Source: a virus. From it: 64,000 bases of DNA. The notes beneath the pieces are model-generated. The model did no database searches and was not told where the DNA came from. It was given only the letters and a program-made list of their open reading frames with translations. Where the stretch lies: the IMG/VR virus record IMGVR_UViG_3300042502_001233, positions 19,125 through 83,124 of that record; one strand, written 5' to 3'. Below are positions 4,537 through 47,090 of the stretch, piece after piece. Made by a program: the position numbers and the translations under genes. Position 1 is the first letter of the stretch. Each line of letters begins with the position of its first letter.

Positions 4537-4913
4537 TATTCTTTCTCCTTTTCTTTTACGTGGTCATCACATAGTGTGTATAACCAACCTTTTATTTTTC
4601 TGTTTGTACCTTTTTCACCACATTTCTCACACGTTTCGTAAGATAGTTTTTCGTATTTTATGATAACATCAGCAGCACCTTCTGGATACGTTTCGATATA
4701 GAATCTTAACCCACCAAATTTTTCTTTAACTTGAACAGGTCTTTTATCCCACCCCAATGCGATTAATTCAGTTATTAGGTCTTTGATAATAGGATACCAA
4801 CCTTCACCAACACCAAAAGCATATGCATCAACGATTGGTCCTTTATCTTCTCGATATGTTCTTTCTAACCCACCTATGGAAACTAGAAATTCATCCATTT
4901 CTTTTTTGGTCAT
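4536..4913 (-). CDS. zinc-ribbon protein
   Basis: CEKCGEKG...LCDDH Cys cluster. Confidence 0.4.
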   Translation of the reverse strand: MTKKEMDEFLVSIGGLERTYREDKGPIVDAYAFGVGEGWYPIIKDLITELIALGWDKRPVQVKEKFGGLRFYIETYPEGAADVIIKYEKLSYETCEKCGEKGTNRKIKGWLYTLCDDHVKEKEKE

Positions 4914-5098
4914 TATCTTCGAATTAAAACGTATTTATAATCTTTTTTTTCTACTGGTTCTGGATAATCAATCTCAACACATGGGTTGTATCTTACTGGT
5001 GAGTTAGGGTTATAAAAACAAACTGGTAAACCAGTATTCCATCTCATTTCTTGACCGTATTTGTTAATTACCCTGCCGTATCTATCTAGTTTGTGCAT
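4913..5098 (-). CDS. small protein, paralog of 5100..5450 (shared C-terminus DYKYVLIRR)
   Basis: C-terminal YKY(V/L)LIRR and RYG motif shared with the adjacent ORF. Confidence 0.35.
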   Translation of the reverse strand: MHKLDRYGRVINKYGQEMRWNTGLPVCFYNPNSPVRYNPCVEIDYPEPVEKKDYKYVLIRR

Positions 5099-5099
5099 A

Positions 5100-5450
5100 T
5101 TATCTTCGTATTAAAAGGTATTTATATTCATTTTTTGTTTCTCTTTTTTGGTTCAATTTACCATTAGTTTCGTGTTCCCAACCGTAGCGTTCAAAATTAT
5201 GTGGTGCATATTGTCCATTGCATTTTCTCCAAATTTCTTCTGTTGTCGATGTTAAACTAAATTTATTTAAAGAATTAATATCGCTAATTGTGGATAAACT
5301 ACCATCATCTCTTTTATTGATATAAACTTTCCAACGACCACCATCACGATAATAATAATACTGTCTACCATCATGCATTAACCTTAATGCAGTGCTATTA
5401 TCCATCAGCACAAACTGTGGGTATAAGGGTGTTATTTTTGCCATTACCAA
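5100..5450 (-). CDS. hypothetical protein, tandem paralog (C-terminus EYKYLLIRR)
   Basis: see 4913..5098. Confidence 0.35.
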   Translation of the reverse strand: MVMAKITPLYPQFVLMDNSTALRLMHDGRQYYYYRDGGRWKVYINKRDDGSLSTISDINSLNKFSLTSTTEEIWRKCNGQYAPHNFERYGWEHETNGKLNQKRETKNEYKYLLIRR

Positions 5451-5692
5451 CTAATTTTTAAATAACCACCATCTCTAAAATCCCCATCAACATACTTGGT
5501 TTTAAAACCACGTTTGTTTAACTCTTTGATTGTTAAATCATCTGGATAACATGAAACATCGCAAGAAAATTGATTTCTTTTTACTGACATTTCTATGGAT
5601 TCCAAACAAAGTTTTATTTGTTTTTCAACTTTTTCACCTAAAATTGTTTCTGCTGTTTTTCTAGCCCAATCGGCTGTAATGTTTTCTTTCAT
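5444..5692 (-). CDS. hypothetical protein
   Basis: 82 aa. Confidence 0.35.
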   Translation of the reverse strand: MKENITADWARKTAETILGEKVEKQIKLCLESIEMSVKRNQFSCDVSCYPDDLTIKELNKRGFKTKYVDGDFRDGGYLKISW

Positions 5693-5730
5693 ATATATTA
5701 TTTTAAAGGTTATGCTCTAACCCATAAGGA

Positions 5731-6681
5731 TTAGAGCATTTTGTATAACAATTTGTCATCGTAGTTAACTATGAAGTCTTCTACTGAATCAACTTTACCA
5801 TCAACCAACCCAAAATACAATCCAGTGAATTGTTTTAAGTCGTGTTTTCCACAAACTTCAAAGACAGCCGCAGCGTATCTTTTCTTTTCTTCTTTGGTTA
5901 TGTTTCTTGGTTTACGAGCGCTTAACTCACCCCACATTTCATTTAACTTTACAGTCAATTTGTCGTAGTTCTCTTTAAGTCTTAACAATTCGTCTTTTCT
6001 TTCTGGGAAAGTTGAGGCGAATTCTTCTATCTCGTTAGATTTAACGATAGTTATGATATTGTGTTCAGCAGTTTTACCTTTAAGGTGATGTGCGTGTACG
6101 TAAGCTGGGTTTTTTATCTTGATACGATTGAAATTAGCGTCTACAACAACGTAACCTTCTTCTGACCATGGCATACCCTCAAATGTACGTAACAACGCAC
6201 CCACATCTTTAGCGTTCAAGTCAAATCTTTTAACCAATGGTAATCTTAAAGATACGGATACCATTTCTAAGTCTTTCCAAGACAATTCCACTAAAGTCAC
6301 TCGGTTTCTAACAGTCAACAAAGTTGCTGATGATTCTCCGTGTGGTGCTACAACGATATTGTATGGAGTAGTTAACTCAAAAACGTATACGTGGTCTTTA
6401 TCCAACATACATGGGTTTAACGCGTATTGTTTTGTTACAGTATCCCAAAATAACGAGTTGAATGTTGTTCCCATTTTGTTGTTTACTTCACCTTCACCTT
6501 CGGCTGTACCAGTTGTACCAGCAAACCATTTATTAGCGTGCCAATCCCAATATACTTGGATTAATGAATTATGTACTAGAATACCATTAGCGAAAAAATT
6601 ATTAGTTATTTTGGTTTGAATGTCGTATCTTTTAGATTCACAAGTAATTGATTTGATACTTTTTATTTTAACTATTTTCAT
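5731..6681 (-). CDS. RNA ligase 1 (Rnl1 family) C-terminal part preceded by a split-intein C-segment (IntC, 38 aa)
   Basis: The N-terminus ...YDIQTKITNNFFANGILVHN|S is intein block F/G ending HN then Ser+1. The extein SLIQVYWD aligns with T4 Rnl1 SLVSTYLD after KEDG. Motif IV EGYVVVD and motif V RIKIKNP are present. Confidence 0.8.
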   Translation of the reverse strand: MKIVKIKSIKSITCESKRYDIQTKITNNFFANGILVHNSLIQVYWDWHANKWFAGTTGTAEGEGEVNNKMGTTFNSLFWDTVTKQYALNPCMLDKDHVYVFELTTPYNIVVAPHGESSATLLTVRNRVTLVELSWKDLEMVSVSLRLPLVKRFDLNAKDVGALLRTFEGMPWSEEGYVVVDANFNRIKIKNPAYVHAHHLKGKTAEHNIITIVKSNEIEEFASTFPERKDELLRLKENYDKLTVKLNEMWGELSARKPRNITKEEKKRYAAAVFEVCGKHDLKQFTGLYFGLVDGKVDSVEDFIVNYDDKLLYKML

Positions 6682-9545: not shown

Positions 9546-10187
9546 TTATTTTGAATAATAATAACTTGGGATTCTTATTTTAACACCGTGTCTAGCACCC
9601 AAAGCATCAACACCTTCTGTAAATCTAGTATCAAAACCACAAGTTTCTTCAACGACACCCGTAAGATAAAGAGTATACTGAGCTTTACCCAACCAATCTT
9701 TTTCTTTTCTAATATCACTAACACTTACTATTAAACCGTTGAATGTATGGTCTTTCATAAACTCATTCAATTCTTCTTTAAGGGTTTCTTCATCAATATC
9801 CATTTGAAATGGAACACCCATAGATGTTAGTGATTCGCTAACCATTTCGTTGTATCTTCCGAAACTTCCGTTTATTAAAACTTGGAATGGAACCCATTTA
9901 ACCACATGTGGTTCATTATGGTTTATTTTACCAGAATACTTGGCTAAATAAGTATAACCCATGTTACCACTTTTATGTATCGCAAATACCAATTGTAAAT
10001 CAGAAATATCCAAACCAGTTTCTTCTTTACATTCTCTTATGGCTGTTACCATAGGGTTTCCGATGTCTTCTATTTCACCTTTGCCGCCGATTAACCCAAA
10101 ATCATTATGATTATCTTTTCTAGAAACACCAAGTATTAACCCGTCTTCATTTATTAATACAACTTGTGACGTATATTTTATTTCCAT
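9546..10187 (-). CDS. Nudix hydrolase
   Basis: Nudix box GGKGEIEDIGNPMVTAIRECKEETGL. Confidence 0.8.
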   Translation of the reverse strand: MEIKYTSQVVLINEDGLILGVSRKDNHNDFGLIGGKGEIEDIGNPMVTAIRECKEETGLDISDLQLVFAIHKSGNMGYTYLAKYSGKINHNEPHVVKWVPFQVLINGSFGRYNEMVSESLTSMGVPFQMDIDEETLKEELNEFMKDHTFNGLIVSVSDIRKEKDWLGKAQYTLYLTGVVEETCGFDTRFTEGVDALGARHGVKIRIPSYYYSK

Positions 10188-10267
10188 TATTTTATTTTTT
10201 TACAAAAATACGAATTAATTTTAAACAAAACAAGAACTTTAAAAAATATCTTCATATTTATAGATAT

Positions 10268-10420
10268 ATGAAGAATAAATATAAAACGAAAACAAAAGTA
10301 AATTATTCTATTAATTCCGAAATAGTTAATAGTTTTAATGATTTAGCTGATAAAAAATCAGTTAATAAATCAAAATTAATAGGTCAATTAATACAAAAAT
10401 GGATAAATGAAAACTTATAA
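10268..10420 (+). CDS. small ribbon-helix-helix (CopG-like) protein preceding the GIY-YIG gene
   Basis: MKNKYK...VNYSINSEIVNSFNDLADKKSVNKSKLIGQLIQKW; the same NKSKLI..LL motif occurs in four other small ORFs before HNH genes. Confidence 0.4.
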   Translation: MKNKYKTKTKVNYSINSEIVNSFNDLADKKSVNKSKLIGQLIQKWINENL

Positions 10421-11045
10421 AATTTACACTTTAAACCATCCAATTACTAATGAAATACGTTATGTTGGACAAACTGTTTATGAACTTAAAATAAGGTTAA
10501 GAAAACATTTAGTTTCTAAAGATAAATCATATAGGACAAACTGGATACAATCATTGTTAAAACAAGATTTAAAACCGATAATAAATTTAGTTTTAGATAA
10601 TTTATCAAAAGAAGAAAGTAATTACTATGAACAATATTATATACAAAAATATAAAGAAAACGGTGTTAACTTAGTCAATTTAACAAACGGTGGTGAAGGT
10701 AGTAATGGGTTTCGTCATAGTGAAGAGACTAAAAAATTATTATCCAATATTAGAAAAGAACAAAAAGAAAAAAATATACTAAAATTTAACTCTATAAATA
10801 ATAAAATTAGTAAAACTAAAACACCTAAAATTGATATTGAGGTTTATTCCGCTAACGTGATAAATCAAAAAGGTAGAAGAAATATTAAGCAATTTACATT
10901 AGATGGTGAATTTATCCGAGAATTTATCTCATTACGAGAAATAGAACGAGAATTAGGTTATTTTAGAGCAAATATAACACCTTGTTTAAAAGGTGAGTTT
11001 AAACAGGCTTATAATTTTATATGGAAATACTCTGATGAAACTTAA
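10407..11045 (+). CDS. GIY-YIG homing endonuclease
   Basis: N-terminal KIYTLNHPITNEIRYVGQT (GIY...YVG); NUMOD-like basic C-terminal region; opposite strand to its neighbours. Confidence 0.8.
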   Translation: MKTYKIYTLNHPITNEIRYVGQTVYELKIRLRKHLVSKDKSYRTNWIQSLLKQDLKPIINLVLDNLSKEESNYYEQYYIQKYKENGVNLVNLTNGGEGSNGFRHSEETKKLLSNIRKEQKEKNILKFNSINNKISKTKTPKIDIEVYSANVINQKGRRNIKQFTLDGEFIREFISLREIERELGYFRANITPCLKGEFKQAYNFIWKYSDET

Positions 11046-11296
11046 ATGATTCTATGTTTAATCATTGACGTATCTATCCCAGCTTTATTTGCCTTTTCGA
11101 TAAGTTCTTTAAGCACACATTTACCAACCTCAGTTATTTCTTTAGCTTTATCCATATCATATAACGTATAACCACGTTCTAATGCGGAAATTTTAACTTT
11201 TTCACTAATTGTTAGTTTATCATTGTGGTTATCCTTTCTAGACACCCCAAGTATTAAACCTTCTTCGTTAATCAATACTACTTGTGCTGTTATCAT
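11042..11296 (-). CDS. chimeric small ORF whose first about 26 aa duplicate the Nudix N-terminus
   Basis: MITAQVVLINEEGLILGVSRKDNHND vs Nudix QVVLINEDGLILGVSRKDNHND, about 80% nt identity over about 66 nt; the two copies flank the GIY-YIG gene. Confidence 0.4.
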   Translation of the reverse strand: MITAQVVLINEEGLILGVSRKDNHNDKLTISEKVKISALERGYTLYDMDKAKEITEVGKCVLKELIEKANKAGIDTSMIKHRII

Positions 11297-11610
11297 TTTT
11301 TTCTATTTTTTTTAGGGGTTAAAGTTGTTTTCCTTTTTTGCCATATTTTAAACTTTGTAGCTAACACATTTTGAGTATAAGTGTTAAGCGGTTCTTCAAA
11401 AGTTTCACATTTTTCATATGATTCTTTATATAATAAATGCATAAGATGAATAGCAGATGTTACATCAACGTGATTTATATCGTTTACTATTTTATCAAAC
11501 CTATTTAATAACCTAGCTGGTTTTCTGGAATCTAAACCCCTTTCATTTATTATATTAACCATGGTTATGGCTGCTGGTGAATCACCAAATGTTCTTTCAT
11601 CTAATTTCAT
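11293..11610 (-). CDS. hypothetical protein
   Basis: 105 aa. Confidence 0.35.
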   Translation of the reverse strand: MKLDERTFGDSPAAITMVNIINERGLDSRKPARLLNRFDKIVNDINHVDVTSAIHLMHLLYKESYEKCETFEEPLNTYTQNVLATKFKIWQKRKTTLTPKKNRKK

Positions 11611-11611
11611 G

Positions 11612-12133
11612 TTATATAATTTTAAAATTAATAGCTTGATGGATACTGAGCCTATCCTCTTTTATCGCATCTTCAATTGTTTCGTGACCAATGTACCAAA
11701 AAGAATCAAATTTACAAAATTTTTCTTTACCCTTTATGTTTCGTTTATAAACCCCATTTGTTTCTGGGAAAATACTGGACTCAATTTTCATTGTAGGGTG
11801 TTTTTTAAGTGACCATTTAATTGGAGTTTTCCAAGTTATAAACAAAGTTTTCGTAACCCCATTTATTGATTTAATTCTGTGGAAGTCTGTTGGTTTCCTG
11901 AATATTACTGAACCAACACTATGTTTTTTAACCTTTATTTTATCACCATCTAAAAATTCTTCAACATAACCATTTTTAAGGATTACGGATATGAAATAAA
12001 AAGGATGGTTATGTAAAAAAGGCGTTTTGTCTTCACTTAAAATTGTGTGAAAACGAACATGTAGTTTTTTATAAGACATCAAAGTCTTTCTAATCATATA
12101 ATTAGGTAAACTATTATACTCCTTAAGTAACAT
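11612..12133 (-). CDS. possible cupin-fold protein
   Basis: LHNHPF...HSVGS...FHRI His-rich motifs; weak. Confidence 0.25.
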   Translation of the reverse strand: MLLKEYNSLPNYMIRKTLMSYKKLHVRFHTILSEDKTPFLHNHPFYFISVILKNGYVEEFLDGDKIKVKKHSVGSVIFRKPTDFHRIKSINGVTKTLFITWKTPIKWSLKKHPTMKIESSIFPETNGVYKRNIKGKEKFCKFDSFWYIGHETIEDAIKEDRLSIHQAINFKII

Positions 12134-12183
12134 AACTATTTTTTACAAAGATACGATATGTTTTTAATATATGCAAATAAAAA

Positions 12184-12199
12184 GGGGTCTTAGGACCCC
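12184..12199. terminator. bidirectional rho-independent terminator hairpin GGGGTC-TTAG-GACCCC flanked by A and T runs
   Basis: perfect 6-bp GC-rich stem seen in the sequence. Confidence 0.6.
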
Positions 12200-13128
12200 T
12201 TTTTTATTTCAGTTACTATACCTTTAATAGCAAAGTTTTTTATTTTTTGCCATTTGGTGATGTTGTTTGACATCACTGGTTTACCACCATCTGGATTTAT
12301 TGCAATCGTAATGTGTGGTATTGCATTGGCTGATGGATAACCTTCTACTTTGACCGCCATGGCCATATCGCTAAGACCTATGGCTTCAACATACAACGTT
12401 ACCTCTTTACCTAAGTCTTCTTTGTTTGGAACACCTTTACCGAATACAATTGTCATGTGGTGAGCAAATACTTTCCAACCTTCTGGGATATAATCATCAA
12501 GTCTAGATAACAACGCTGCTTTAGAACCATTATCCAATACAACAGCTGAATATAACACATCAGATTCTTTGTACATGTCTTTAGACTCCAAAACACTTTT
12601 CAATGTTAGCAATCCTTGACCTTTGTGAGATTCAATCAATGATTGAATTTTTTCCAATGGTACACCGTGAGTATTTCTCTCAGCAAGTATTTCCGCTGGT
12701 AACCCGTTGGTACCTATATCAACAAATTTTATGTTGTTATCAGACAAACCTAATTCTAACGCTGCTTTCACATACGCTTTGGATTCGTTTTGTTTGATGT
12801 TCGTGTTATCCACAATAACTGGTGATAATCCTTCTTTCAAAGATTTTATCGCATTTTTCAAGTTTGTTGAGTGCGCTCTTGACAATGGTGTGAAATCTTT
12901 CGACTCAAACATTGCTGCAAAGAATTTGTTGTAATCACCTTGTGACTCAATAACATCGTCTGTGGAGTGTATGATACCTTCACCTACTAGTTCTTTAGCT
13001 TTTGTGGATTTACCAGAACCTGGTATACCGCGCATAACTATCAGTTCTTGTGTTGGTCTTGTAACTACAACACCCAACGCATTTTTTTTCATGTCTTCTC
13101 TTAATATTGTTCTTATTTCTTTTTTCAT
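12190..13128 (-). CDS. bifunctional polynucleotide 5'-kinase / 2H-family cyclic phosphodiesterase
   Basis: N-terminal P-loop GIPGSGKST (T4 Pnk kinase-like); C-terminal twin HxT motifs HHMTI and HITI typical of the 2H phosphoesterase superfamily. Confidence 0.7.
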   Translation of the reverse strand: MKKEIRTILREDMKKNALGVVVTRPTQELIVMRGIPGSGKSTKAKELVGEGIIHSTDDVIESQGDYNKFFAAMFESKDFTPLSRAHSTNLKNAIKSLKEGLSPVIVDNTNIKQNESKAYVKAALELGLSDNNIKFVDIGTNGLPAEILAERNTHGVPLEKIQSLIESHKGQGLLTLKSVLESKDMYKESDVLYSAVVLDNGSKAALLSRLDDYIPEGWKVFAHHMTIVFGKGVPNKEDLGKEVTLYVEAIGLSDMAMAVKVEGYPSANAIPHITIAINPDGGKPVMSNNITKWQKIKNFAIKGIVTEIKKGS

Positions 13129-13152
13129 TGTGCAAATGTATATATTAGTTTT

Positions 13153-13932
13153 TTAACTAGCAACTTTTTTATATAATAATTTTTTAACGTTTGGTGTCAA
13201 AGAGAAATTTGGAATTTCTTTTAAACACCATTTAAGATAATGCGGTGCTGTTTTGGCAATCTCTCCAACTGTTTTACCTTTGTTCTTACCAAAATTAATC
13301 ACATCATCTTCATCCAACGCTTTTGATACTTTGGTTGTGGCTGGTTTCTTTTTATCTTCCATTAACATAAGTTTAGAATCTTTTAAATCAACCATGTGAA
13401 GCATAATCTTAGCCTCATCTTTAGCATCAGCGCCAGCTCTATGTTCTTCAACATATACCTCACCGTCCTTCATAAAGAATTGGTTATAAATCTCTTCCAC
13501 CGATGGTCTTTTGGTTTTACCATTCTTATCTTTGTATTGTGAGTATTGTGTGGCTGTTTGCATAAGACACTTAACGTCTTTCATTTCAAACCCAGCAGCT
13601 TTCAAGAATCTAAGGTCAAATGATTTGTTATATGCGGTCATTTTGTATTTGTCAAACAATTCTTGGAGTTCTTCTCTGTAATCATCCAAAGATTTCGCAT
13701 TTTCAACGTCTTCAACCGTAAGTGTTGTGTTTTGGAATATCCAAGAGTTCTTATGTCTTTTTGAGTTAAACTTATCGTGTTTAATTACGTTATCGAAAAC
13801 TATTTCGATTTTTTTGGTTACGGTATCCACTAAGGCAATACCTATTTCTACGATAGCATCAGACTGCGCGTAAAAACCTGTTGTTTCAATATCTACTACT
13901 AATAATTTCATGTATTTTGTTGTTATAAACAA
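13153..13932 (-). CDS. DEDDh 3'-5' exonuclease (DnaQ/RNase T-like)
   Basis: Exo I VVDIETTG, Exo II AYNKSFDLRFL, Exo III H...D (EEHRAGADA). Confidence 0.75.
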   Translation of the reverse strand: MFITTKYMKLLVVDIETTGFYAQSDAIVEIGIALVDTVTKKIEIVFDNVIKHDKFNSKRHKNSWIFQNTTLTVEDVENAKSLDDYREELQELFDKYKMTAYNKSFDLRFLKAAGFEMKDVKCLMQTATQYSQYKDKNGKTKRPSVEEIYNQFFMKDGEVYVEEHRAGADAKDEAKIMLHMVDLKDSKLMLMEDKKKPATTKVSKALDEDDVINFGKNKGKTVGEIAKTAPHYLKWCLKEIPNFSLTPNVKKLLYKKVAS

Positions 13933-20483: not shown

Positions 20484-21677
20484 TCAAGATAATCCTAATA
20501 ATTTTTTAAATTTATCAGTTTCCATTTTTTGAATGGCTTTTCCAAGTTCAGGTCCAGGACCTATATTGAATTTTTCCATCGCTTCTGGACCAGTAACTGT
20601 TAGTCTGAACTCTTCAAAAGCATCTAGCAATTGTGATGATATACCTTCGTTGCTACCAAAATTTCTAATTTGGTCGTTGGATACTCCAGAAGTTTGTTGT
20701 ACTTTCTTTAATAAGTAAGCAGTGTCAACATCTAACTTCAATAATGAAATTAAAAACACAATGGCTTTAATCTCATCCGATGAGTATTTTAAATCATTTA
20801 GTTTTTTTCTCAATACATCAACGTTGTTACCTTTTAACAACCTAGCTAACAATACTATGTAATCATCAGCTTTGTAATCAGAGTTTCTTCTAAATACTCT
20901 TGTGTCTACATCCAAATTAGGAAATATCCAATCAAACAATTTGTATTTGTCTAACATCAACAAGTAAGCGTCGGTTGATTTAGCTGATATAAGCCCTTTG
21001 ATAAATTCATCTCTAATACGTTCACCAGAAATACCTTCAAGACTAGCATCTTGTTGTAACGCAGCATCTACGTCAGGGTCCAACCCACTACCAAATCTAC
21101 CAGCCAGTCTTATACCTCTAAGTTTACGTAATTTATCTTCACTAAACCTGTCTTCTGATTTACCAACAGTGCGTATAACAGAATTTTTTAAATCAACGAT
21201 ACCACCTACTAAATCTACTACTTCTTGGGTGTCCATATCATAAAACAAAGCATTTACACTAAAATCTCTTCTTAAAACATCAGATTTTATATCTGAAAAT
21301 TCAACGTAATCTGGTCGTCTACCATCACTACTACCGATATCTTTACGCATAGTAGCTATCTCATATTCACCATCTGTAGTTATAACATTAACCACACCAA
21401 ACGCTTTACCTGTTTCCAATATATTTGTAACAAATTCTTGATTTTTTAATAAATTTATTACGTTATCTGGTGTGGCATTTGTTACTAAATCAAAATCTTT
21501 TGGTGTTACATTAAGTAACATATCACGAACTGACCCACCAATAGGGTATAATTCAAAACCATTTTTTTTAAAAATTGAATGAATTTTATTAACATTTGTC
21601 GGAAATTTAAAATAAATTTTTAATCTCTTCTCTGATGTTAAATTTTTTTTTAAAATTTCCTTTATAATTGTTTTCAT
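20484..21677 (-). CDS. tRNA nucleotidyltransferase (CCA-adding enzyme)
   Basis: Head-domain motif LYPIGGSVRDMLL...DFDL (GGxVRD / DxD). Confidence 0.8.
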   Translation of the reverse strand: MKTIIKEILKKNLTSEKRLKIYFKFPTNVNKIHSIFKKNGFELYPIGGSVRDMLLNVTPKDFDLVTNATPDNVINLLKNQEFVTNILETGKAFGVVNVITTDGEYEIATMRKDIGSSDGRRPDYVEFSDIKSDVLRRDFSVNALFYDMDTQEVVDLVGGIVDLKNSVIRTVGKSEDRFSEDKLRKLRGIRLAGRFGSGLDPDVDAALQQDASLEGISGERIRDEFIKGLISAKSTDAYLLMLDKYKLFDWIFPNLDVDTRVFRRNSDYKADDYIVLLARLLKGNNVDVLRKKLNDLKYSSDEIKAIVFLISLLKLDVDTAYLLKKVQQTSGVSNDQIRNFGSNEGISSQLLDAFEEFRLTVTGPEAMEKFNIGPGPELGKAIQKMETDKFKKLLGLS

Positions 21678-22549
21678 ATTTTATTATCATTTAAAATGTT
21701 TAATAACATTTTTTTAACAACATCAAATTTATTTTTAATATCAAATTCCCAAAATCTAATTATTTTAATATTATTGTCTTTTAACATTATTTCTTTTCTT
21801 TTATCTCTATCTATATTTTTAAGTTGAATGGAATCTAGGGTTTTATCTTTATAGACCAATGGGTTTGCATGCCAATAATCACCATCACATTCCACCACTA
21901 AGTTATACTTAGGTAAATAAAAATCAACTAAAAAATTATTTATTCTATGATTTTTAATAAAATCTATTGATTCATCAATTAATAAATCTTTAATTTTTAA
22001 TTCAATAATAGTTGGTTTTCTATTTTGAATCATCGCTTTATTTAAACGATTAATTATTATTTGTTTTTCTTCATCTGTTTTTTTAGACCAATTTAACTTA
22101 GCCTTTTCCGATAATTTCTCAGAATATTTTAAAATTCTTTCATCATTAAATTTAGTTTTCCCATTATTCCAAGCTGTTGAACCATACATAGGGTTATTTT
22201 CGCCACTTAAGCTTGGTAAGGTACCAGATTTAAACATATCAATTCTAGTTTTAGCTAACTTCTCAGATTTTATTCTAACTATTTGTGAATTTTCTTTAGT
22301 TTTACCTTTTAACGGTGAAACTTTACCAAACATTGCATTGTTTTCACCACTATTTAATCTAGATTTTATTTGATATGTTTGTTCTTTAGAGTGTTTCAAT
22401 TTTAATTTACCTATTTTAACACTAATCGCTTCTAATGTTCTATTATATTTCGAATTAAACAATGGATATATCTCACTTACAGAAAAACCGTTATTTTCAT
22501 ATAATTCTCTTAAATACCTAACTTCTTCTTCAGACCAATATTTTCTCAT
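21674..22549 (-). CDS. freestanding homing endonuclease: NUMOD3 repeats + Vsr-like/EDxHD catalytic domain
   Basis: GENNAMFGK and GENNPMYGS NUMOD3 motifs; C-terminal VVECDGDYWHANP. Confidence 0.75.
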   Translation of the reverse strand: MRKYWSEEEVRYLRELYENNGFSVSEIYPLFNSKYNRTLEAISVKIGKLKLKHSKEQTYQIKSRLNSGENNAMFGKVSPLKGKTKENSQIVRIKSEKLAKTRIDMFKSGTLPSLSGENNPMYGSTAWNNGKTKFNDERILKYSEKLSEKAKLNWSKKTDEEKQIIINRLNKAMIQNRKPTIIELKIKDLLIDESIDFIKNHRINNFLVDFYLPKYNLVVECDGDYWHANPLVYKDKTLDSIQLKNIDRDKRKEIMLKDNNIKIIRFWEFDIKNKFDVVKKMLLNILNDNKI

Positions 22550-25166: not shown

Positions 25167-25226
25167 AATTTCTAATTTTTTGTTTATTATAAATATACCA
25201 CACTTTTAAAAAATGTAAAGTGTTTG

Positions 25227-25299
25227 TAGTTCTAATCGGACTCGAACCGATATCTCTCCGTTTTAGAGGCGGGTGTATTCACGTTAATACTATAGAACC
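25227..25299 (-). tRNA. candidate amber-suppressor tRNA, anticodon CUA
   Basis: The 73-nt hand fold fits canonical numbering. Acceptor is GGTTCTA/TAGAACT, D-stem GTAT/ATAC, anticodon loop CTCTAAA (34-36 = CUA), and T-arm ATCGG/TTCGAGT/CCGAT. The anticodon stem has C.A mismatches at both ends. Confidence 0.45.
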
Positions 25300-25349: not shown

Positions 25350-25562
25350 CTAACTTTTTTTCAAAAATTTTCCAAGTCTTAAAACTTTCTCTTTAAATTC
25401 CTCAAAAGTTCCGTTGTTTTCAATGATGATATCAGCACATGTTTTGTCAATATCAAACGATGATGGGTCTTCCAACGGAAGTCTTTCAGACGCATCAACC
25501 CAAATGATTATATCAAATAAACCTTGTCTCATACACTCGTTGATTTCAGCTCTATCTCGCAT
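25350..25562 (-). CDS. hypothetical protein
   Basis: 70 aa. Confidence 0.35.
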   Translation of the reverse strand: MRDRAEINECMRQGLFDIIIWVDASERLPLEDPSSFDIDKTCADIIIENNGTFEEFKEKVLRLGKFLKKS

Positions 25563-26178
25563 CTAAAGATAATTCAATAATTAAATCGTTAACAACTTTT
25601 TTTAACGCTTTAATGTCTTTTTTATCATTATAAATAACTTTACTAAAGTTAGTATAATCATCTAGATTAGTTTCTGAGATATGGTTTAAATCACGTAAGC
25701 TGTTCTCTCTAACACCCATTGGGTCGCCTTCCAGTCGAATTAAATAACCACCTTCTTTAAGGATATAGTCAGCTTCATTAACAAATCTAACATCTGGTAT
25801 CACAATAATTTTACCATTATTTAACTTAGTATCTAATTCTTCATTAAAGAATGATTTAACCCAAATATCAGTATCATAATTATCTCTAAATAAATCAGTA
25901 CCAACTAATTGTAATGTTTCACCAATAGTTTTATCAAATTGTTTAATAACTATATTTTTTTGGTCTTGAGTATAATTACGAATCTCATTGCAGAATGGTT
26001 TATTAGCTTCATGAGTTGTCGTCATACGTATACCACTAATTATTTCCGTAATTAACCTTAATTTATCAGCCAATGCATGTCTTTCTACTTTACCATGTAA
26101 TTGCTCAGCTAATAATTCAGCAAAGGTATCTTTACCACTACCTATTTTTCCACTAATACCTATAATTTTTTTTTTCAT
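25552..26178 (-). CDS. deoxynucleoside monophosphate kinase (T4 gp1-like)
   Basis: P-loop GISGKIGSGKDT (T4 gp1 GVKRSGKDT) and IVIPDVR...G.LIRLEG block. Confidence 0.65.
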   Translation of the reverse strand: MKKKIIGISGKIGSGKDTFAELLAEQLHGKVERHALADKLRLITEIISGIRMTTTHEANKPFCNEIRNYTQDQKNIVIKQFDKTIGETLQLVGTDLFRDNYDTDIWVKSFFNEELDTKLNNGKIIVIPDVRFVNEADYILKEGGYLIRLEGDPMGVRENSLRDLNHISETNLDDYTNFSKVIYNDKKDIKALKKVVNDLIIELSLDAR

Positions 26179-26181
26179 ATT

Positions 26182-29100
26182 TTACATTTTAAATGCTGTA
26201 ACATAAATAAATTTATCACTTTCTCTTAAAACCAAGTTATCAAAACCTATTTCTAAAAGTATTCTTTTAAATTCATCTTCATTATCTTTCCATTGATTGG
26301 CTGTTTCTGCAATCATGATTGGTTGCATAGTTCTCAATACTCTGTAAGCTTCTTTTAAATAATCTTCATAATTGCTACCCATAAGTGATAAACTAAAAAC
26401 AACAACATCTATAGATTCATCGTCTAAAGGTAATTTTGAAATATCACAAGCTATTACTGAATCATCAATGGCTACGTGGTCAAATGATAACACTTTGTTG
26501 GGTATTTCAGTTTTTAAAAGGTTTTCACCACATCCAAAATCACCAACAATATAATCTTTACGTTTAATTTGTTTAGCGATTTCTTTATATGGTATTTCTG
26601 ACCAAGTTTTTCTAGCTTCACGATACAAAGTATGATACTGATACCACTCAGTTGGGTCCTCGGTTAATCGTTTGTTAGTTGTAATAGAATTTGATACACC
26701 CCAGCGTTTATTCATTTGACTGAACTCACCATATTTAGGTAGGTTATGATTAACATAATTTGGATTCAAAGGTATTTTAAATTCTTCTCTATCAAACGTG
26801 ATAATCTCACCGTTGTTTAAACGATTAACCCATTCGGCCAACTCTTGTTGTGCTTCAAACACTAATCGTTCTCTTGAAGGTAGGAGATTTCTAGGAACAC
26901 GCCCATCAATTGCTAAATCACCCAAAGTTGCTTTAAATCTAATTATATTATGTCTACGTCTGTCCCAACTCCAAATATGTTCGCCAGCTGGTATAATAAC
27001 TTGTGGAATATAAATGTTAACTTTATCAAATTTAGAACCTTGTCTATTAACACGACCAACTAATTGGTCATATTCAGAACTGGTCCATGGAAGTACTATT
27101 GGTATCAATGTGTCACACACATATTGAATACCGTCTACACCAGTACCAACTGGTGCCGAACCAATTAAAACATCTAATTTACCCTTTTTAAAAGCTTCTA
27201 AACCACTTTTATCGTCACCAGTATAAAATCCTATACTAAAACCTAAATCTTTTACGAATTTACCTATAATATCGGTTAATTCAGTAACATAATATGTGTA
27301 TATTAAAGTCCCCCTTTTTATTTTATCTTTAACAGAATCAAGTTTAGTATTAATTAAAACTTTTTCGAACTCGCTAACAGCACCTTTAGGTATTGCTATG
27401 ATTTCATTAAACAAATGACTACCATCAGATTCTATGATTTCTTCGTTAACTGAAATACCATAATTAGGTTTATAACGAAGACCATATCTTGTTAATGCTT
27501 TATACATTTCAATACCATTTACAATGTTTTCTTTGGTTTCTAATTCGTTATGAGATTCACCTGTTAACAATTCAATTAATTTTTTAGGTTCTGTTAAATT
27601 GTTAATAATTGGTGTTGCCGACATAGCCATAACTAATAAATTTTCATTATCTTCTTTAGAGTTTATTATTAGTTTTTTAACAACATTCCTTCTAATAGAT
27701 TCTTCGTTATCACGCTGCTTAACATTTTGAACTTCATCTAAAATTATGTAATCAATCTGATTATATTTTAACAATTCAGAAACAATATATTCACCATCTT
27801 CTAACTGAAACGTTTCATAATTTAATACTAAATAATTATAAACATTTTCTTTTAATTTTATGTTATGTTTATGAACTAAATTATAATTAGAATTAACACC
27901 TTCTAATTCTTTCTTAACGTAAATCTGATTGTTAGTGAAATATTCATTTATGGACTCAACCCAGCCCTCAACAGTTGCATTATTACAAATTATTATAGTG
28001 TTTTTAGCACCAGCTAACCTACCAGCAAATATTGCAGATAAAGTTTTACCAGCACCAGTTCCAGACCAGTTACCGTATTTTTTCTCTTTAATTAAACGAT
28101 AACTAATTAGTTTTTGCATTAAGTTTGGCTGATGTTGAAAAATGTAATCACTTGGGGCGACTATTTTACAAACTTCTTCGTATTCACTAAAAAACCAGTC
28201 TTTAATTATTGTAAACCTTTCACCACCAGTTTCACCTCTTAAAGTATCAACATCTATTTGATTGTTAAGAACTTTATTCCACAATTTTTTTAATTGATTC
28301 TTTAACAAGAAATCAATATTTTCATCATCCAAAGAAGCGGTAACCATTGTATTATCATACATATGTAATTCTTTAATTGGGTCTAAAGGTGCTAATGACT
28401 CTGGTTCTTCTTCAGTAATTTCATCAACATTACCCTCAACTAAATCAACTTCTAAATTAGTTGGTTCGTTTAGAATAGAATCATTGTTGGTGTCATCGTC
28501 AGACTCATCGTTTTCTAACGTATCTAATATATCGTGAATTAATCTTTCTCTTTCCTCCGAACCAGCTTCAGAAGAAGTTAAAGAATCTAATGACCCTATT
28601 TGTTGTATTTTTTTAGCGAGATTGTTTGAATTTATTATGGTTATTAGTTCAACTGAGTCCATATAAATTAAATCTTTTTCTAAAGATTTAATAAAGTCTA
28701 ACATATAACGTTTATTCCAATAGTGACCATCACCTAAAGAACCTAACCAATCACCCATAGAAACCCACCCAGAATATTTGTATGTTTTTTCTGGCATTGC
28801 TGGGATGTTGTCTGGTTTTTTTATGTTTTTCCATTCACTATAAGATTTAAGACCTAAAGTTCTAGCATATTCTCTAGCTTCTTCAAATGGTAAAAACTCC
28901 CTAAAATTTGATAACTTACCATGACCTAACCAATCACTCCAAGATACCCAACCAGATTCTTTATAAACTTGAGATGGTGATGCTGGAATTTCATCTGGTT
29001 TAGCTGAAGATTTAGAAAACAACCTCCATTCTTTTTCACCAGTTAATTTTAAACTTCTAGCATATTCTCTAGCTTCTTCAAATGGTAGATAATCTCTTTT

Positions 29101-30078
29101 GTTACATGATATGTAATTAGTTCCTAACCAATCACCCAGCGACACCCAACCAGAATCTTTATAAACCCTATCTGGGGCACTAGGTATATTATTTGGTCTT
29201 AATTCAGATTTAATAAATTCAACCCATTCCTTTTGTCGGGTTATATTTAATTTTCTAACATATTCTCTAGCCTCTTCAAACTGTAAAAATTTTTTATCAA
29301 AATTTGATAACTTACCGTGACCTAACCAATCAACCCAAGATACCCAACCAGAATCTTTATATGTTTTATTTGGTGATTTAGGAATTTTAACATCATAATC
29401 GGTAGATTTTAAATATGTTCTAAACTCATTAGTGTTATTTAATTTTAAATTATGTATTATTTTCCTAGCTTCTTTAAAATCATAAAACTCATCAAAATCT
29501 TTTTTATAACCTAAAAAATCACCCCAAGATTTCCACCCATAATTTTTATACATTACGTGAGGTGAATAAGGTAAACCATTCACATTTGTTTTGTTTAAAT
29601 ATTCATGATATTTAGTTTGTGATGTTAAACCTAAAATTTTAACTACGTTTTTGGCCTCTTCAAAGGATAAATAATTTCTATTTTTTAAAGCAACGTAATT
29701 AGTTCCTAACCAATCACCCAGCGACACCCAACCAGAATCTTTATATATTTTATCTGGCGATGTAGGTATGTTGTGAGGCCTTAATTCAGACTTATAAAAA
29801 TTTTTCCAATCTTGTTGTGTTTTTAATCCTAAACTCTTAACAAAATTTTTAGCAATTTCAAAAGGTAGGTAACCGTCTTTTAGATTCACCGATGAACATT
29901 TAGTTTTATTTAACAAAGCATATGGTGTTATTAAATGTTCTGTATTAAACTTTTTATCAATAACCACCACTTTTTGGTTAGTATTGACATATTCGACTTT
30001 GGAATAATCATAATTATCGTTCCAATTACCACTATCTCTTAATTTTTGTAAAAACTCTTTTGTTTTATCAGTCATCAT
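26182..30078 (-). CDS. 1298-aa multidomain protein: about 8 tandem repeats of roughly 58 aa (ending YKDSGWVSxGDWLG) + SNF2/SF2 helicase + C-terminal SAM methyltransferase
   Basis: Walker A GTGAGKT, DEVQ box, SAT, helicase motif VI QLVGRVNRQGS; MTase motif I VGDFGCGEN. Confidence 0.8.
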   Translation of the reverse strand: MMTDKTKEFLQKLRDSGNWNDNYDYSKVEYVNTNQKVVVIDKKFNTEHLITPYALLNKTKCSSVNLKDGYLPFEIAKNFVKSLGLKTQQDWKNFYKSELRPHNIPTSPDKIYKDSGWVSLGDWLGTNYVALKNRNYLSFEEAKNVVKILGLTSQTKYHEYLNKTNVNGLPYSPHVMYKNYGWKSWGDFLGYKKDFDEFYDFKEARKIIHNLKLNNTNEFRTYLKSTDYDVKIPKSPNKTYKDSGWVSWVDWLGHGKLSNFDKKFLQFEEAREYVRKLNITRQKEWVEFIKSELRPNNIPSAPDRVYKDSGWVSLGDWLGTNYISCNKRDYLPFEEAREYARSLKLTGEKEWRLFSKSSAKPDEIPASPSQVYKESGWVSWSDWLGHGKLSNFREFLPFEEAREYARTLGLKSYSEWKNIKKPDNIPAMPEKTYKYSGWVSMGDWLGSLGDGHYWNKRYMLDFIKSLEKDLIYMDSVELITIINSNNLAKKIQQIGSLDSLTSSEAGSEERERLIHDILDTLENDESDDDTNNDSILNEPTNLEVDLVEGNVDEITEEEPESLAPLDPIKELHMYDNTMVTASLDDENIDFLLKNQLKKLWNKVLNNQIDVDTLRGETGGERFTIIKDWFFSEYEEVCKIVAPSDYIFQHQPNLMQKLISYRLIKEKKYGNWSGTGAGKTLSAIFAGRLAGAKNTIIICNNATVEGWVESINEYFTNNQIYVKKELEGVNSNYNLVHKHNIKLKENVYNYLVLNYETFQLEDGEYIVSELLKYNQIDYIILDEVQNVKQRDNEESIRRNVVKKLIINSKEDNENLLVMAMSATPIINNLTEPKKLIELLTGESHNELETKENIVNGIEMYKALTRYGLRYKPNYGISVNEEIIESDGSHLFNEIIAIPKGAVSEFEKVLINTKLDSVKDKIKRGTLIYTYYVTELTDIIGKFVKDLGFSIGFYTGDDKSGLEAFKKGKLDVLIGSAPVGTGVDGIQYVCDTLIPIVLPWTSSEYDQLVGRVNRQGSKFDKVNIYIPQVIIPAGEHIWSWDRRRHNIIRFKATLGDLAIDGRVPRNLLPSRERLVFEAQQELAEWVNRLNNGEIITFDREEFKIPLNPNYVNHNLPKYGEFSQMNKRWGVSNSITTNKRLTEDPTEWYQYHTLYREARKTWSEIPYKEIAKQIKRKDYIVGDFGCGENLLKTEIPNKVLSFDHVAIDDSVIACDISKLPLDDESIDVVVFSLSLMGSNYEDYLKEAYRVLRTMQPIMIAETANQWKDNEDEFKRILLEIGFDNLVLRESDKFIYVTAFKM

Positions 30079-30368: not shown

Positions 30369-30530
30369 ATGGGAAGAAAAGCAAAAATACAAGAAGAAAA
30401 GAAAGATAAAATTAGTATCTCTATCTCAAAAGAAAACTACGAAGCAATGGCTTCAGAAGGTATCAATAAGTCACAACTAATCAATTGGTTGTTAGAACAA
30501 CACTTTAATTTATTAAATTATGGAAAGTAA
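30369..30530 (+). CDS. small RHH-like protein (cassette ORF B)
   Basis: ISISISKENYEAMASEGINKSQLINWLLEQHF, a CopG-like pattern; a paralog is at 35297. Confidence 0.4.
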   Translation: MGRKAKIQEEKKDKISISISKENYEAMASEGINKSQLINWLLEQHFNLLNYGK

Positions 30531-31185
30531 AATTTGTAATACGTGTAATACTGAATTACCATTAGATAATTTTTCTAAAGACAATGCAACTAAAGATAAA
30601 TTAAAAAATACATGTAAAAAATGTTCCTCAATTAAAAACGCTGAATGGAGAAAAAATAATAAAGAAAAAAGAAAACAATACCATAAAGAATATCATAATA
30701 AAAATAAAGAAAAATTAAAAGAGTATAATAAAAAGATTAACAATGAATTTAAAAAAACACATGGTATATCTAGACATACTTTATGGGATAGAGAGAATAA
30801 AGATAGACGTAAAGAATTATTGAAAATTAGACTAAAAAATCCAGTAGAGGCTTTAAAGTATAAATTAAGGAGTTCTTTAAATGCAATTTTTAGATATAAC
30901 GGTTATACTAAAAAACATAAATCACACGATATTATAGGTTGTTCATATGAAGAATTTAAACAACACCTTGAATCTCAATTTGAACCTTGGATGAATTGGG
31001 ATAATCGTGGGTTATATAATGGTGAGTTTAACTATGGTTGGGATATTGACCATATGGTACCATTATCAACGGCAACAACTGAAGAAGAGTTAATTAATTT
31101 ATGTCACTACACAAACACACAACCATTATGTAGTAAAGTTAATAGGGATATAAAGAAAAATAAAGTTGATTTTTATCCAACATAA
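30520..31185 (+). CDS. HNH homing endonuclease with N-terminal Zn finger and basic KEY-repeat region
   Basis: GWDIDHMVPL...NTQPLCSKVNRDIKKNK. Confidence 0.8.
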   Translation: MESKICNTCNTELPLDNFSKDNATKDKLKNTCKKCSSIKNAEWRKNNKEKRKQYHKEYHNKNKEKLKEYNKKINNEFKKTHGISRHTLWDRENKDRRKELLKIRLKNPVEALKYKLRSSLNAIFRYNGYTKKHKSHDIIGCSYEEFKQHLESQFEPWMNWDNRGLYNGEFNYGWDIDHMVPLSTATTEEELINLCHYTNTQPLCSKVNRDIKKNKVDFYPT

Positions 31186-45574: not shown

Positions 45575-47011
45575 TTAAACAGTTACGCAAGCGTAACGTT
45601 CTGAGCCGATAACAGACATCATCATTGAGTATGGTGTCATCTCTTTACCCGCTAGCAAGCTAGTCAATAAAGATGGTGAGAAACCACTCACTAAAGCAGT
45701 ACCGTTTTTATCAAACTGAACTGGTTTGTTGTTATCACCTCTTGACTGAATGTTCCAGTATACAACTTTAGGCATAGCATAACCAGCTTGAGAGTATTTG
45801 GCTTCAATCATTTGTTGTGCAGTTGGGTTCCAACTTCCACCACCAGCGTAGTTGAATTCCATATCCGAAAGGATAAGAATCATTGTTGGCATTTCTTCTT
45901 GAGAAACTTTAGAAGCTCTCGCTTTGTCAAGTATCAAGTTGAACACCGCTTCGATGTTGGTAGACATTGCCCACTCAGCACGTCTCAATTGGTTGTATCT
46001 CTCACTAAGAGAACCTTTCAAGATTTGAAGCGAAGGACGACTTGAGAAAGTCACAAACGCATCTTGGAAAGGACCAACGTTTCTTTCTGAAATGTATAAC
46101 CCCAAAGAGATTGCTACATCCATACAAGTTACACTAGCGCTACCACCAGCTGAACAAGACATTGAACCTGACACGTCAACAACTGGCAAGAATTTCTCGT
46201 TGTTGTTTTCCATGTAGTTAGGTAGTGCACCCCATTGTGCGTTAGCACCTTTAGTGTTACCTTGGTTCAAGCTTTTGATAATGTCGTATGGGTATACGGC
46301 ACCAGCGTTTATTTTTGTTTCACCTTTTTCAACAGAGTTAAGGTATTCTTGGAAACGAACCAAGTCATTTTTAGAGAACGCTTTCATGTAGTCACTCATT
46401 GCTTTTGAAGGCAATTTAGAATACTCAATTTTAGAGAATTCTTTAGCACACATCAATTGCTCAACGGTGTTAGAGTTTTCTACTAACATTTTACGGTAGT
46501 CTTTTGGTGACATACCCATGTGTTTTCTCAAAGCTGTCGCCCATCTTTTTTTCTCACGATTACCTACGTTTGGACGTGGCATCCATTTAGCGCAAAGACC
46601 ATTTTTATTAGCCAACGCACTAGCGATTAACTCCAAAGCATCTTTTTCCAAAGGTGTACCTACCAATACAAGTAAGTCATCCCATCTACCGAACTCGGCA
46701 ATCAAGTGTAAATTTTTACGCAAAGCGTCTGTACGGTTAGCCGCAAGATACTCTATGATATCTCTGAAGATTTTTCTTTCTCCAGCTCCACCACGAACGT
46801 CACGTGCCCAGAACAACAAACGCATTGCTGTTAATGAGTTCTCACCAAATGCTTTCGTGAATACATTGATAAGACGTTGTTTATCTTGCCCTCTCATAGC
46901 ACCAATCTGGAAGAATAAATCCACACATAGGTTTAATGATGAAGAGTTAGTAGACATACCGTTTTCAGTCAATGAATCTTTAGTTTGCATAGCATTTAAT
47001 AATGTACTCAT
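45575..47011 (-). CDS. vWA-domain protein with TROVE/Ro60-like or DUF2828-like N-terminal region
   Basis: MIDAS-like VVDVSGSMSC; N-terminal LLFWARDVRGGAGERKIFRD; the likely start is MSTLLNAMQ at 47011, not 47050. Confidence 0.45.
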   Translation of the reverse strand: MSTLLNAMQTKDSLTENGMSTNSSSLNLCVDLFFQIGAMRGQDKQRLINVFTKAFGENSLTAMRLLFWARDVRGGAGERKIFRDIIEYLAANRTDALRKNLHLIAEFGRWDDLLVLVGTPLEKDALELIASALANKNGLCAKWMPRPNVGNREKKRWATALRKHMGMSPKDYRKMLVENSNTVEQLMCAKEFSKIEYSKLPSKAMSDYMKAFSKNDLVRFQEYLNSVEKGETKINAGAVYPYDIIKSLNQGNTKGANAQWGALPNYMENNNEKFLPVVDVSGSMSCSAGGSASVTCMDVAISLGLYISERNVGPFQDAFVTFSSRPSLQILKGSLSERYNQLRRAEWAMSTNIEAVFNLILDKARASKVSQEEMPTMILILSDMEFNYAGGGSWNPTAQQMIEAKYSQAGYAMPKVVYWNIQSRGDNNKPVQFDKNGTALVSGFSPSLLTSLLAGKEMTPYSMMMSVIGSERYACVTV

Positions 47012-47042
47012 AATAATAAAATTTTTGATTGTTAATTTTTGA

Positions 47043-47090
47043 TAATGCAAAGATACTACTTTTTATATATGCTTGTCAAGTTTTTTTTCG
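47043..47090 (-). promoter_or_regulatory. class-1 promoter (TTGACA-N17-TAGTATCTTTG)
   Basis: atgcaaagatactactttttatatatgcttgtcaagtttttttt. Confidence 0.5.

Follow-up and report, generated by a model that had tools for sequence, protein, structure and literature searches.

Here, we describe a jumbo-phage protein that combines a repeat array, an SNF2 motor and an Rrp8-type methyltransferase in a single polypeptide. Its gene lies on the minus strand of a 64,000-nucleotide stretch of viral DNA, analysed as a whole and called the window below (positions 19,125 to 83,124 of IMG/VR record IMGVR_UViG_3300042502_001233). The features are given from the N-terminus of the product to its C-terminus, followed by the adjacent gene:

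26182..30078, minus strand: whole open reading frame (ORF), 1298 aa plus stop codon; a single ORF with an ATG start
29884..30078, minus strand: N-terminal unit, aa 1-65, a helix and beta hairpin with 'YDYSKVEY' (structure model and motif match by eye)
28741..29883, minus strand: six tandem INT_rpt (PF14882) units of 61-66 aa each, aa 66-446 (Pfam, HMM of the protein's own repeats, structure model)
28591..28740, minus strand: helical 'adapter' domain, aa 447-496 (homologue consensus)
28399..28590, minus strand: acidic linker, aa 497-560, net charge -22 (composition, structure model)
28144..28398, minus strand: helical N-terminal extension of the motor, aa 561-645, with a conserved PNLMQ element
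26959..28143, minus strand: SNF2-family two-lobe ATPase, aa 646-1040
26731..26958, minus strand: conserved helical bridge from motor lobe 2 to the methyltransferase, aa 1041-1116
26185..26730, minus strand: Rrp8/nucleomethylin-type class-I SAM methyltransferase, aa 1117-1298
25552..26178, minus strand: dNMP kinase gene, a separate neighbour (PF21448, E=9.5e-16)

The ORF is a real gene and not a chance ORF, because an identical protein is present in public databases (P0001, from a public contig of 362 kb) and homologues at E<=0.001 number more than 2,400. The initial annotation, made from the sequence alone, had divided the product into repeats, an acidic linker, an SF2/SNF2 core and a class-I SAM methyltransferase, and this division is upheld; each of the motifs it quoted occurs once in the ORF (GTGAGKT at aa 673, DEVQ at aa 781, SAT at aa 820, QLVGRVNRQGS at aa 1005 and VGDFGCGEN at aa 1178). 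The linker is indeed acidic, with 24 D+E against 2 K+R at aa 497-560, and is partly disordered in the structure model (pLDDT <50 at aa 528-560). A promoter and terminator scan of the gene's surroundings was uninformative, returning 32 promoter-like sites where 40 are expected by chance.

The repeats, to which no family name had been given, belong to INT_rpt (PF14882) in Pfam (42.3 bits against a cutoff of 26.5, in four stretches), a family formerly called PHINT_rpt. About eight repeats of ~58 aa had been proposed; six are counted here, 61-66 aa long, ending at aa 125, 190, 253, 319, 385 and 446 and sharing 32-62% pairwise identity. Their closing motif, originally described as invariant, is strongly conserved yet varies (YKNYGWKSWGDFLG, YKDSGWVSWVDWLG, YKESGWVSWSDWLG, YKYSGWVSMGDWLG), and the suggested resemblance to HA repeats was not borne out, as the Pfam HA family is absent even at E<=1. 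An HMM of the protein's own repeats detects the same six units here and, in 116 of 120 homologues, between 2 and 29. In the model, every unit consists of four helices, two of them longer and two short. As a whole, the array is mildly basic (net +12, pI 9.2), and the repeats probably bind DNA. The 65-aa unit ahead of them is separate, is modelled with pLDDT of 94-98 and has no match of its own in Pfam; by eye, its 'YDYSKVEY' motif agrees with the DUF723 units in homologues L011 and L017, and it looks like a cysteine-less DUF723-type zinc-ribbon unit.

Judged by domain matches, the N-terminal modules are interchangeable across the family, being INT_rpt units, DUF723 or DUF4379 zinc ribbons, or a sigma-70 region-4 helix-turn-helix (HTH), the last of which is a classical dsDNA binder. 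Planctomycetota homologues carry the Sigma70_r4 HTH (E=5e-13 and 6e-9), some other homologues carry six DUF4379 treble-clef units (E=8e-125), and one phage encodes the repeats as separate ORFs immediately 5' of the core. The adapter domain is kept in every family member, whatever the array type, and is located after INT_rpt, DUF723, DUF4379 and sigma-r4 N-termini alike.

The motor is an SWI2/SNF2-clade ATPase. Pfam matches are to SNF2-rel_dom (39.9 bits, cutoff 24.9) and Helicase_C (26.9 bits, cutoff 23.5), and structure comparison places the motor nearest to SNF2 remodellers, which score ~10 Z units above RNA helicases; among BFVD viral structures, matches were to the helicase part only, with TMq<=0.44. 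Helicase motifs I, II, III and VI are intact, with Walker A residues G675/G677/K678/T679 and further motif residues D781-E782, S820-A821-T822 and Q1005/R1009/R1012.

The C-terminal domain scores 129.8 bits with PF05148 (Methyltransf_8), for which the cutoff is 27 (E=1.7e-37), and aligns over profile positions 13-195 of 219; in structure comparison its fold is that of human RRP8 (2ZFU), which is clearly nearer than other class-I methylases. By sequence, its nearest characterised relative is the eukaryotic rRNA enzyme Rrp8: the phage domain is ~35% identical to human RRP8, and the residues that are invariant in the family are mostly identical in the alignment with the human protein. Motif I reads D1180-x-G1182-C1183-G1184, and further motif residues are D1200, C1211-D1212 and D1224. 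Mutation of G209 in yeast Rrp8 abolishes or strongly reduces SAM binding (PMC3553958), and the equivalent SAM-binding glycine of motif I is intact in the phage domain. Every characterised PF05148 member (yeast Rrp8, human NML) acts on adenine N1 of large-subunit rRNA, in helix 25.1, and bacterial rRNA is normally without m1A (PMC3553958). Stand-alone Rrp8-like candidates of 215-460 aa, prokaryotic or eukaryotic, were mostly fragments of the fusion family among the readable cluster members sampled, and a methylase-only match at locus L110 looked spurious.

At least 356 bacterial species (of ~185,000), spread over many phyla, carry the family core, as do 23 viral contigs, mostly large, and a few plasmids (3 of 72,556). 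In Flavobacteriaceae, homologues at 60% identity are carried on the chromosome as ordinary genes, and the inspected bacterial contexts in general were ordinary chromosomal ones, often next to toxin-antitoxin arrays; with this sporadic spread, the gene looks like an accessory gene and not one for ribosome biogenesis. The four motor motifs and methylase motif I are invariant in 54 homologues of 37-72% identity, and with both active sites so preserved, the two activities have therefore been selected together. Across homologues, Walker A and methylase motif I are separated by an almost constant distance, and methylase-free versions (e.g. P0094) are rare among the more than 2,400 proteins. No account of this fusion was found in the literature on Rrp8 with phage or helicase, on PF05148 or on helicase-methyltransferase proteins.

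In the window, the fusion gene is surrounded by nucleotide-metabolism and tRNA genes. The dNMP kinase gene begins 3 nt past the fusion-gene stop codon, and because only 3 nt separate them, co-transcription is probable. The same 64 kb holds 16 tRNAs, a CCA-adding enzyme, an RNA ligase, a Ro-like protein and a separate anti-restriction-like gene (phrog_7245), while none of its ten largest ORFs matched a structural family; a related phage locus, L006, carries RNase R-like and SmpB genes. All-against-all clustering of neighbours found no conserved partner gene in 72 of 80 bacterial loci or in 24 viral loci, so the gene nearly always stands alone and the polypeptide looks self-sufficient. The sole conserved neighbour is an MmeI-type Type IIL DNA methylase/restriction gene at eight Myxococcota loci, with the family gene directly downstream (6 nt away at L082), a synteny that could be mere inheritance within one clade. 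Most apparent neighbour clusters turned out to consist of antisense shadow ORFs that lie within the family gene.

Our best explanation, which we favour only tentatively, is that the protein is a DNA-tracking, ATP-driven base methyltransferase, probably with adenine-N1 chemistry. The N-terminal array (a degenerate zinc-ribbon-like unit and six INT_rpt units) would tether the enzyme to duplex DNA and would be joined to the motor by the adapter domain and the acidic linker, the latter perhaps acting as an autoinhibitory DNA mimic. The SNF2 motor would translocate along the duplex without unwinding it, distorting it or clearing bound proteins, and the Rrp8-type domain behind motor lobe 2 would flip a base out and methylate it, by homology most likely at adenine N1. 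In the phage, such an enzyme may serve phage-host conflict, marking or protecting phage DNA or disabling host DNA, and solo copies in bacteria may do the converse. This model draws on the interchangeable N-termini, including the dsDNA-binding HTH, on the basic INT_rpt array, on the invariance of both active sites, on the lack of a conserved partner gene, on the linkage to the MmeI-type gene in Myxococcota and on the adjacent dNMP kinase gene. Enzymes that couple an SNF2 motor with a methylase on DNA are already known, namely DarB-type dyads and the restriction-modification (R-M) enzymes of types I and III (PMC5512222). Counting against the DNA model, all characterised PF05148 members act on rRNA, genes for RNA functions and translation abound in the window, and L006 carries RNase R-like and SmpB genes. 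Such a mark would also be an awkward form of protection for the phage's own genome, since N1-methyladenine in DNA is a lesion that blocks replication.

The main rival, a lesser but serious possibility, is an RNA-directed enzyme, acting on rRNA, tRNA or nascent RNA, whose Rrp8-type domain puts m1A on host or phage RNA (the 23S helix 25 equivalent, tRNA or nascent transcripts). Its motor would remodel structured RNA or RNP and expose the Watson-Crick face for the methylase or, alternatively, would ride DNA or RNA polymerase like RapA and present nascent RNA to it; the phage could thereby retune the translation apparatus or shield it from RNA-targeting defences. The methylase is a bona fide member of the Rrp8 family, whose sole known activity is rRNA m1A formation, and a motor that remodels the substrate is a sensible partner for a methylase whose target, N1, sits on the base-pairing face; the tRNAs, CCA-adding enzyme, RNA ligase and Ro-like protein of the window, and the gene content of L006, fit as well. 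However, we know of no SNF2-family ATPase that acts on RNA, and the motor's structural preference for SNF2 remodellers over RNA helicases weighs in the same direction. Methylases of rRNA and tRNA are normally small stand-alone enzymes; one of 1,300 aa whose HTH and zinc-ribbon arrays are interchangeable would be unexpected. The sporadic distribution, often by toxin-antitoxin arrays, and the operon linkage of one clade to a DNA R-M enzyme likewise fit poorly with an RNA target.

Two further readings are less likely. The initial annotation had raised the possibility of a DarB-like anti-restriction or injected protein, which would be packaged in the virion, enter with the DNA and methylate incoming phage DNA in cis against type I restriction; the logic of an SNF2-type motor and a methylase in one large phage protein is the same, and the phrog_7245 gene indicates that this phage invests in counter-restriction. 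We nevertheless consider this role improbable. The annotation had itself counted an RNA or small-molecule methylase, together with absence from the virion, as an argument against it, and the domain falls in the Rrp8 rRNA m1A family; no N6-adenine or DarB-type methyltransferase match was found in the protein, whose sole methylase is Rrp8-type and C-terminal, the reverse of the DarB order. Similarity to the PHROG 'DarB-like' profile (phrog_10089, E=0.003) spans 89 aa of generic helicase C-lobe only (aa 962-1050), and tblastn against 50,697 phage records, expected to include P1-type phages, matched only the repeats and one generic helicase and gave no P1-type match. Chromosomal homologues in Flavobacteriaceae and other bacteria, and a setting of nucleotide-metabolism and tRNA genes with no structural match among the ten largest ORFs, also stand against this role. 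Very unlikely, in our view, is a recombination or repair SNF2 translocase whose methylase-like domain senses SAM, has a regulatory role or methylates proteins. Human NML is reported to bind chromatin marks through its Rrp8-type region, which would suit this reading. SNF2 helicases are common in jumbo phages, and a part in recombination or transcription has been suggested for them (PMC7824862). Yet the SAM-binding and catalytic-pocket residues are all invariant and common to RRP8, and the fusion is kept in nearly all of its many members.

On a broader and more doubtful view, the family as a whole may write N1-methyl-deoxyadenosine or another ring-nitrogen mark into duplex DNA under SNF2 drive, and may also be the prokaryotic stock of eukaryotic Rrp8/nucleomethylin. 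To our knowledge, no such mark is an enzymatic DNA product in phages or bacteria; if real, it could be a weapon that stalls an opponent's replication or transcription without a nuclease, or an unusual protective mark, and prokaryotic descent could explain the reported chromatin association of a eukaryotic rRNA methylase. Phage-host conflicts repeatedly make use of motor-coupled methylases, and all those described, as far as we know, use DNA N6-adenine or cytosine methylases; here, thousands of members couple an SNF2 motor to the methylase type behind eukaryotic ribosomal m1A. Should the target be DNA, the family would represent an unrecognised DNA modification chemistry and possibly a nuclease-free means of disabling DNA. 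Should it be RNA, this would be the first known SNF2-type motor on RNA or at the transcription-ribosome interface, and a phage route to host-ribosome editing. In either case, the orphan repeat families INT_rpt, DUF723 and DUF4379 gain a common functional context, and the family is a prokaryotic relative useful for tracing the origin of Rrp8/nucleomethylin. The substrate question is directly testable in cultured carriers, which include Polaribacter filamentus ATCC 700397, Pseudanabaena biceps, Phormidium tenue FACHB-1050, Crinalium epipsammum PCC 9333 (plasmid copy), Sorangium sp. So ce1000 and Novipirellula sp. SH528.

Among known systems, DarB-type dyads likewise link an SNF2-clade ATPase covalently with a SAM methyltransferase, within one large phage protein, and translocation-dependent methylation is plausible for both. 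In the dyads, a DNA adenine methylase lies N-terminal to the SWI2/SNF2 ATPase and LPD36 is present; they are found in phages and conjugative elements, to which they are limited, and DarB is a component of the virion head (PMC5512222). In contrast, the phage protein carries an Rrp8-type methylase C-terminal to its motor, a repeat array and many chromosomal bacterial homologues, and has no meaningful sequence similarity to DarB. Membership among DarB or polyvalent proteins thus failed on methylase class, domain order and host range; what stands of the earlier proposal is the union of SNF2 motor and methylase in one large protein, a loose functional analogy only.

Type ISP and Type I/III R-M enzymes and the DISARM pair DrmD and DrmMI similarly combine a motor, a methylase and a DNA-recognition module, and the Myxococcota gene is operonic with an MmeI-type enzyme. 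Unlike these, the phage protein has no detected nuclease domain, its methylase is not of the N6A or N4C/5mC DNA type, and the family gene is solo in most genomes. Searches for known anti-phage defence systems (PADLOC v2) matched only the helicase C-lobe of DrmD and DpdF over ~60-105 aa (best, DrmD with E=3e-6 over 66 aa), and NCBIfam profiles scored far under their cutoffs. The Pfam families INT_rpt, DUF723 and DUF4379 supply the units that compose the N-terminal arrays of the family. Eukaryotic Rrp8/nucleomethylin, which forms m1A in 25S/28S rRNA, is a nucleolar, stand-alone protein of ~400-460 aa without a motor domain, whereas in phages and bacteria the same type of methylase follows a repeat array and an SNF2 ATPase in one fused protein.

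The minus strand of the window encodes, as one ORF (26182..30078), a 1298-aa protein in which each of the five sequence motifs quoted in the initial annotation occurs once, at aa 673, 781, 820, 1005 and 1178. The tandem repeats proposed there are present and their closing motif is conserved, but they number six rather than about eight, span 61-66 aa instead of roughly 58, and close with a motif that is variable, not invariant. Anchored on this motif, the units end at aa 125, 190, 253, 319, 385 and 446, and share 32-62% pairwise identity. Ahead of them lies a separate 65-aa unit (helix plus beta hairpin, bearing 'YDYSKVEY') that resembles the DUF723-type units of homologues but lacks cysteines. 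Net charge is +12 over the mildly basic repeat array (pI 9.2) and -22 over the linker (aa 497-560). Pfam matches were INT_rpt (PF14882, above cutoff), SNF2-rel_dom, ResIII, DEAD, Helicase_C and, at aa 1117-1296, Methyltransf_8 (PF05148; E=1.7e-37). The sole solved structure reached by sequence is human RRP8/nucleomethylin (2ZFU), with E=5e-27 and ~35% identity across 161 aligned residues for the single sequence, and E=9.7e-53 for the family profile. The PF05148 members that have been characterised install m1A in rRNA: in yeast, Rrp8 forms m1A645 of 25S rRNA, and mutation of its motif I glycine impairs SAM binding; m1A is normally absent from bacterial rRNA (PMC3553958).

A search of 5.8 billion proteins gave >2,400 matches among the candidates scored, and nearly all of the 120 matches listed share the SNF2 and PF05148 core. 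Among 54 members of this SNF2-Rrp8 fusion family (37-72% identity), the motor shows no variation (54/54) in Walker A, the motif II DE pair, SAT, or the glutamine and arginines of motif VI, and the methylase shows none in D-x-GCG, the aspartate of its motif II, CD, or the glycine of LSLMG; most of these methylase residues are the same in human RRP8 when the two are aligned. Walker A and methylase motif I are separated by a nearly constant distance. This conserved architecture is self-sufficient, and both catalytic centres are jointly under selection. With the methylase domain as lone query, an exhaustive scan yielded ~2,500 clusters at 50% identity, the best 150 of them being either fusion proteins or shorter entries; the shorter entries sampled are mostly pieces of fusion proteins. 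We found no description of the fusion, nor of prokaryotic or phage PF05148 proteins, in the literature, and Rrp8 is unmentioned in two comparative papers, one on polyvalent proteins (PMC5512222) and one on jumbo phages (PMC7824862). Database names are generic ('zinc-ribbon domain-containing protein' in RefSeq), and no viral protein spanning motor and methylase together was found in BFVD.

The N-terminus is exchangeable. An HMM of the six repeats detects 2-12 units in most close homologues. Seven DUF723 zinc ribbons replace the array in distant homologues from Leptospiraceae and Bacteroidota, and three to six DUF4379 treble-clef units do so in a cyanobacterium (E=8e-125), Parachlamydiaceae and Sorangium. 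Distant Planctomycetota homologues have in its place a long N-terminal region with Sigma70_r4 HTH matches (E=5e-13, 6e-9) and one DUF4379 unit. Every version continues with the same adapter helices, then acidic linker, motor and methylase; the targeting front end has evolved by module replacement. Since one alternative is a classical duplex-DNA-binding HTH, the simplest interpretation is that the cassette would bind DNA. One phage encodes the repeats separately, in ORFs directly upstream of an 878-aa core that lacks them. A 629-kb phage contig (L005) carries two paralogues 7 kb apart (2864-6595 and 10001-13564), one with DUF723 and the other with four units matching the repeat HMM. Repeat-only proteins also occur: metagenomic P0024 (2111 aa) consists of 29 INT_rpt-like units and nothing else, and the 309-aa ORF338 of Xanthomonas jumbo phage XacN1 (L008, 2782-3711), whose gene lies near DNA polymerase and RNase H genes, matches the repeat region by tblastn, without a Pfam match. 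Such proteins suggest that the array can function on its own, with no enzyme fused to it.

Scanning one genome per species confirmed 356 bacterial loci, in Flavobacteriaceae, Leptospiraceae, Anaerolineae, Pseudanabaena and other cyanobacteria, Planctomycetota, Verrucomicrobiota, Chlamydiota, Myxococcota, Ktedonobacteria and others; IMG/VR holds only 23 (contigs mostly 90-500 kb), and only 3/72,556 plasmids carry the fusion. In bacteria it is a solo gene, adjoining ftsH and toxin-antitoxin genes in Pseudanabaena-type genomes and surrounded by housekeeping genes on one flavobacterial chromosome. Neighbour clustering of 80 bacterial and 24 viral loci gave no conserved partner except in Myxococcota, where eight loci (L067, L073, L076, L079, L080, L082, L084 and L086) have an MmeI-type Type IIL DNA methylase/restriction gene as their immediate upstream neighbour, 6 nt away in Sorangium; some copies of it have a SAP domain. 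Together the two genes may form an undescribed R-M-like system.

G+C content in the window is 27-39% (mostly ~30%), and nearly all of its coding lies on the minus strand. No annotated phage close to it at the DNA level was found. An identical protein occurs on a 362-kb public contig, the window DNA ligase shares 53% identity with the enzyme of Cellulophaga phages, and the closest cellular homologues of the large protein are from Flavobacteriaceae (60% identity); the source is therefore most likely a jumbo phage infecting a marine flavobacterium. The window carries 16 tRNA genes, and its PHROG matches are to an anti-restriction family, SbcC, RNA ligase, ATP-dependent DNA ligase, CCA-adding enzyme and Ro-like RNA-binding protein.

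Selected features of the window (coordinates, strand, description)
1321-2397, minus, RNA ligase
20484-21677, minus, CCA-adding tRNA nucleotidyltransferase
21674-22549, minus, 291-aa ORF with DUF559/Vsr-like endonuclease domain, adjoining the CCA-adding enzyme gene
25226-25299, minus, tRNA with anticodon CTA (amber suppressor), labelled 'Pyl' by ARAGORN
30520-31185, plus, HNH-like endonuclease gene just upstream of the large ORF, on the opposite strand
45575-47050, minus, Ro-like RNA-binding protein (phrog_850, E=7e-156)
53017-55482, minus, 821-aa protein with C-terminal 260 aa matching phrog_7245 'anti-restriction protein' (E=7e-19)

The RNA ligase, CCA-adding and Ro-like genes share their neighbourhood with tRNA arrays, which together look like an RNA-repair and translation-maintenance toolkit. 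The CTA-anticodon tRNA, one of the 16, lies ~900 bp downstream of the large ORF. The standard code still fits: of 55 minus-strand ORFs with 100 aa or more, 48 end in TAA and only 3 in TAG. A role for this tRNA may therefore be in suppressing rare TAG stops or in translating recoded genes in other parts of the genome. The DUF559/Vsr-like and CCA-adding genes both recur in viral loci L090 and L107, marking those contigs as relatives of the window phage. The HNH-like gene is 51% identical (E=2e-48) to one in viral locus L108 (9609-10043, minus) that abuts a 159-aa ORF comprising the Rrp8-type methylase part only, possibly a disrupted copy of the fusion gene; this suggests a homing endonuclease associated with the locus. 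A dNMP kinase gene starts 3 nt past the large ORF.

Duplex DNA is indicated by two of the three modules (the SNF2 motor, and the arrays of HTH or zinc-ribbon type); the Myxococcota operon and the dNMP kinase gene next to the ORF point the same way. On these grounds we tentatively favor an ATP-driven base methyltransferase that tracks DNA. The methylase module points, by family precedent, to RNA and specifically to N1-adenine chemistry; together with the tRNA and RNA-repair genes around the ORF in the phage, this argues for the main rival, an RNA target (rRNA, tRNA or nascent RNA), which we regard as somewhat unlikely. Substantial gains would follow if the product were m1A in DNA, or if this family were the source of eukaryotic Rrp8.

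The role first proposed for this ORF, taken literally as a DarB-like anti-restriction protein that is injected, is improbable, as the class of methylase, the order of domains, the sequence similarity and the host range all run contrary to it; the 821-aa protein is a candidate counter-defence gene separate from the large ORF. The fusion belongs among motor-coupled methylases, a kind already known. If it is a DNA-tracking methyltransferase, it would be analogous in function to DarB-type and R-M motor-methylase dyads (PMC5512222), from which it differs in its methylase.
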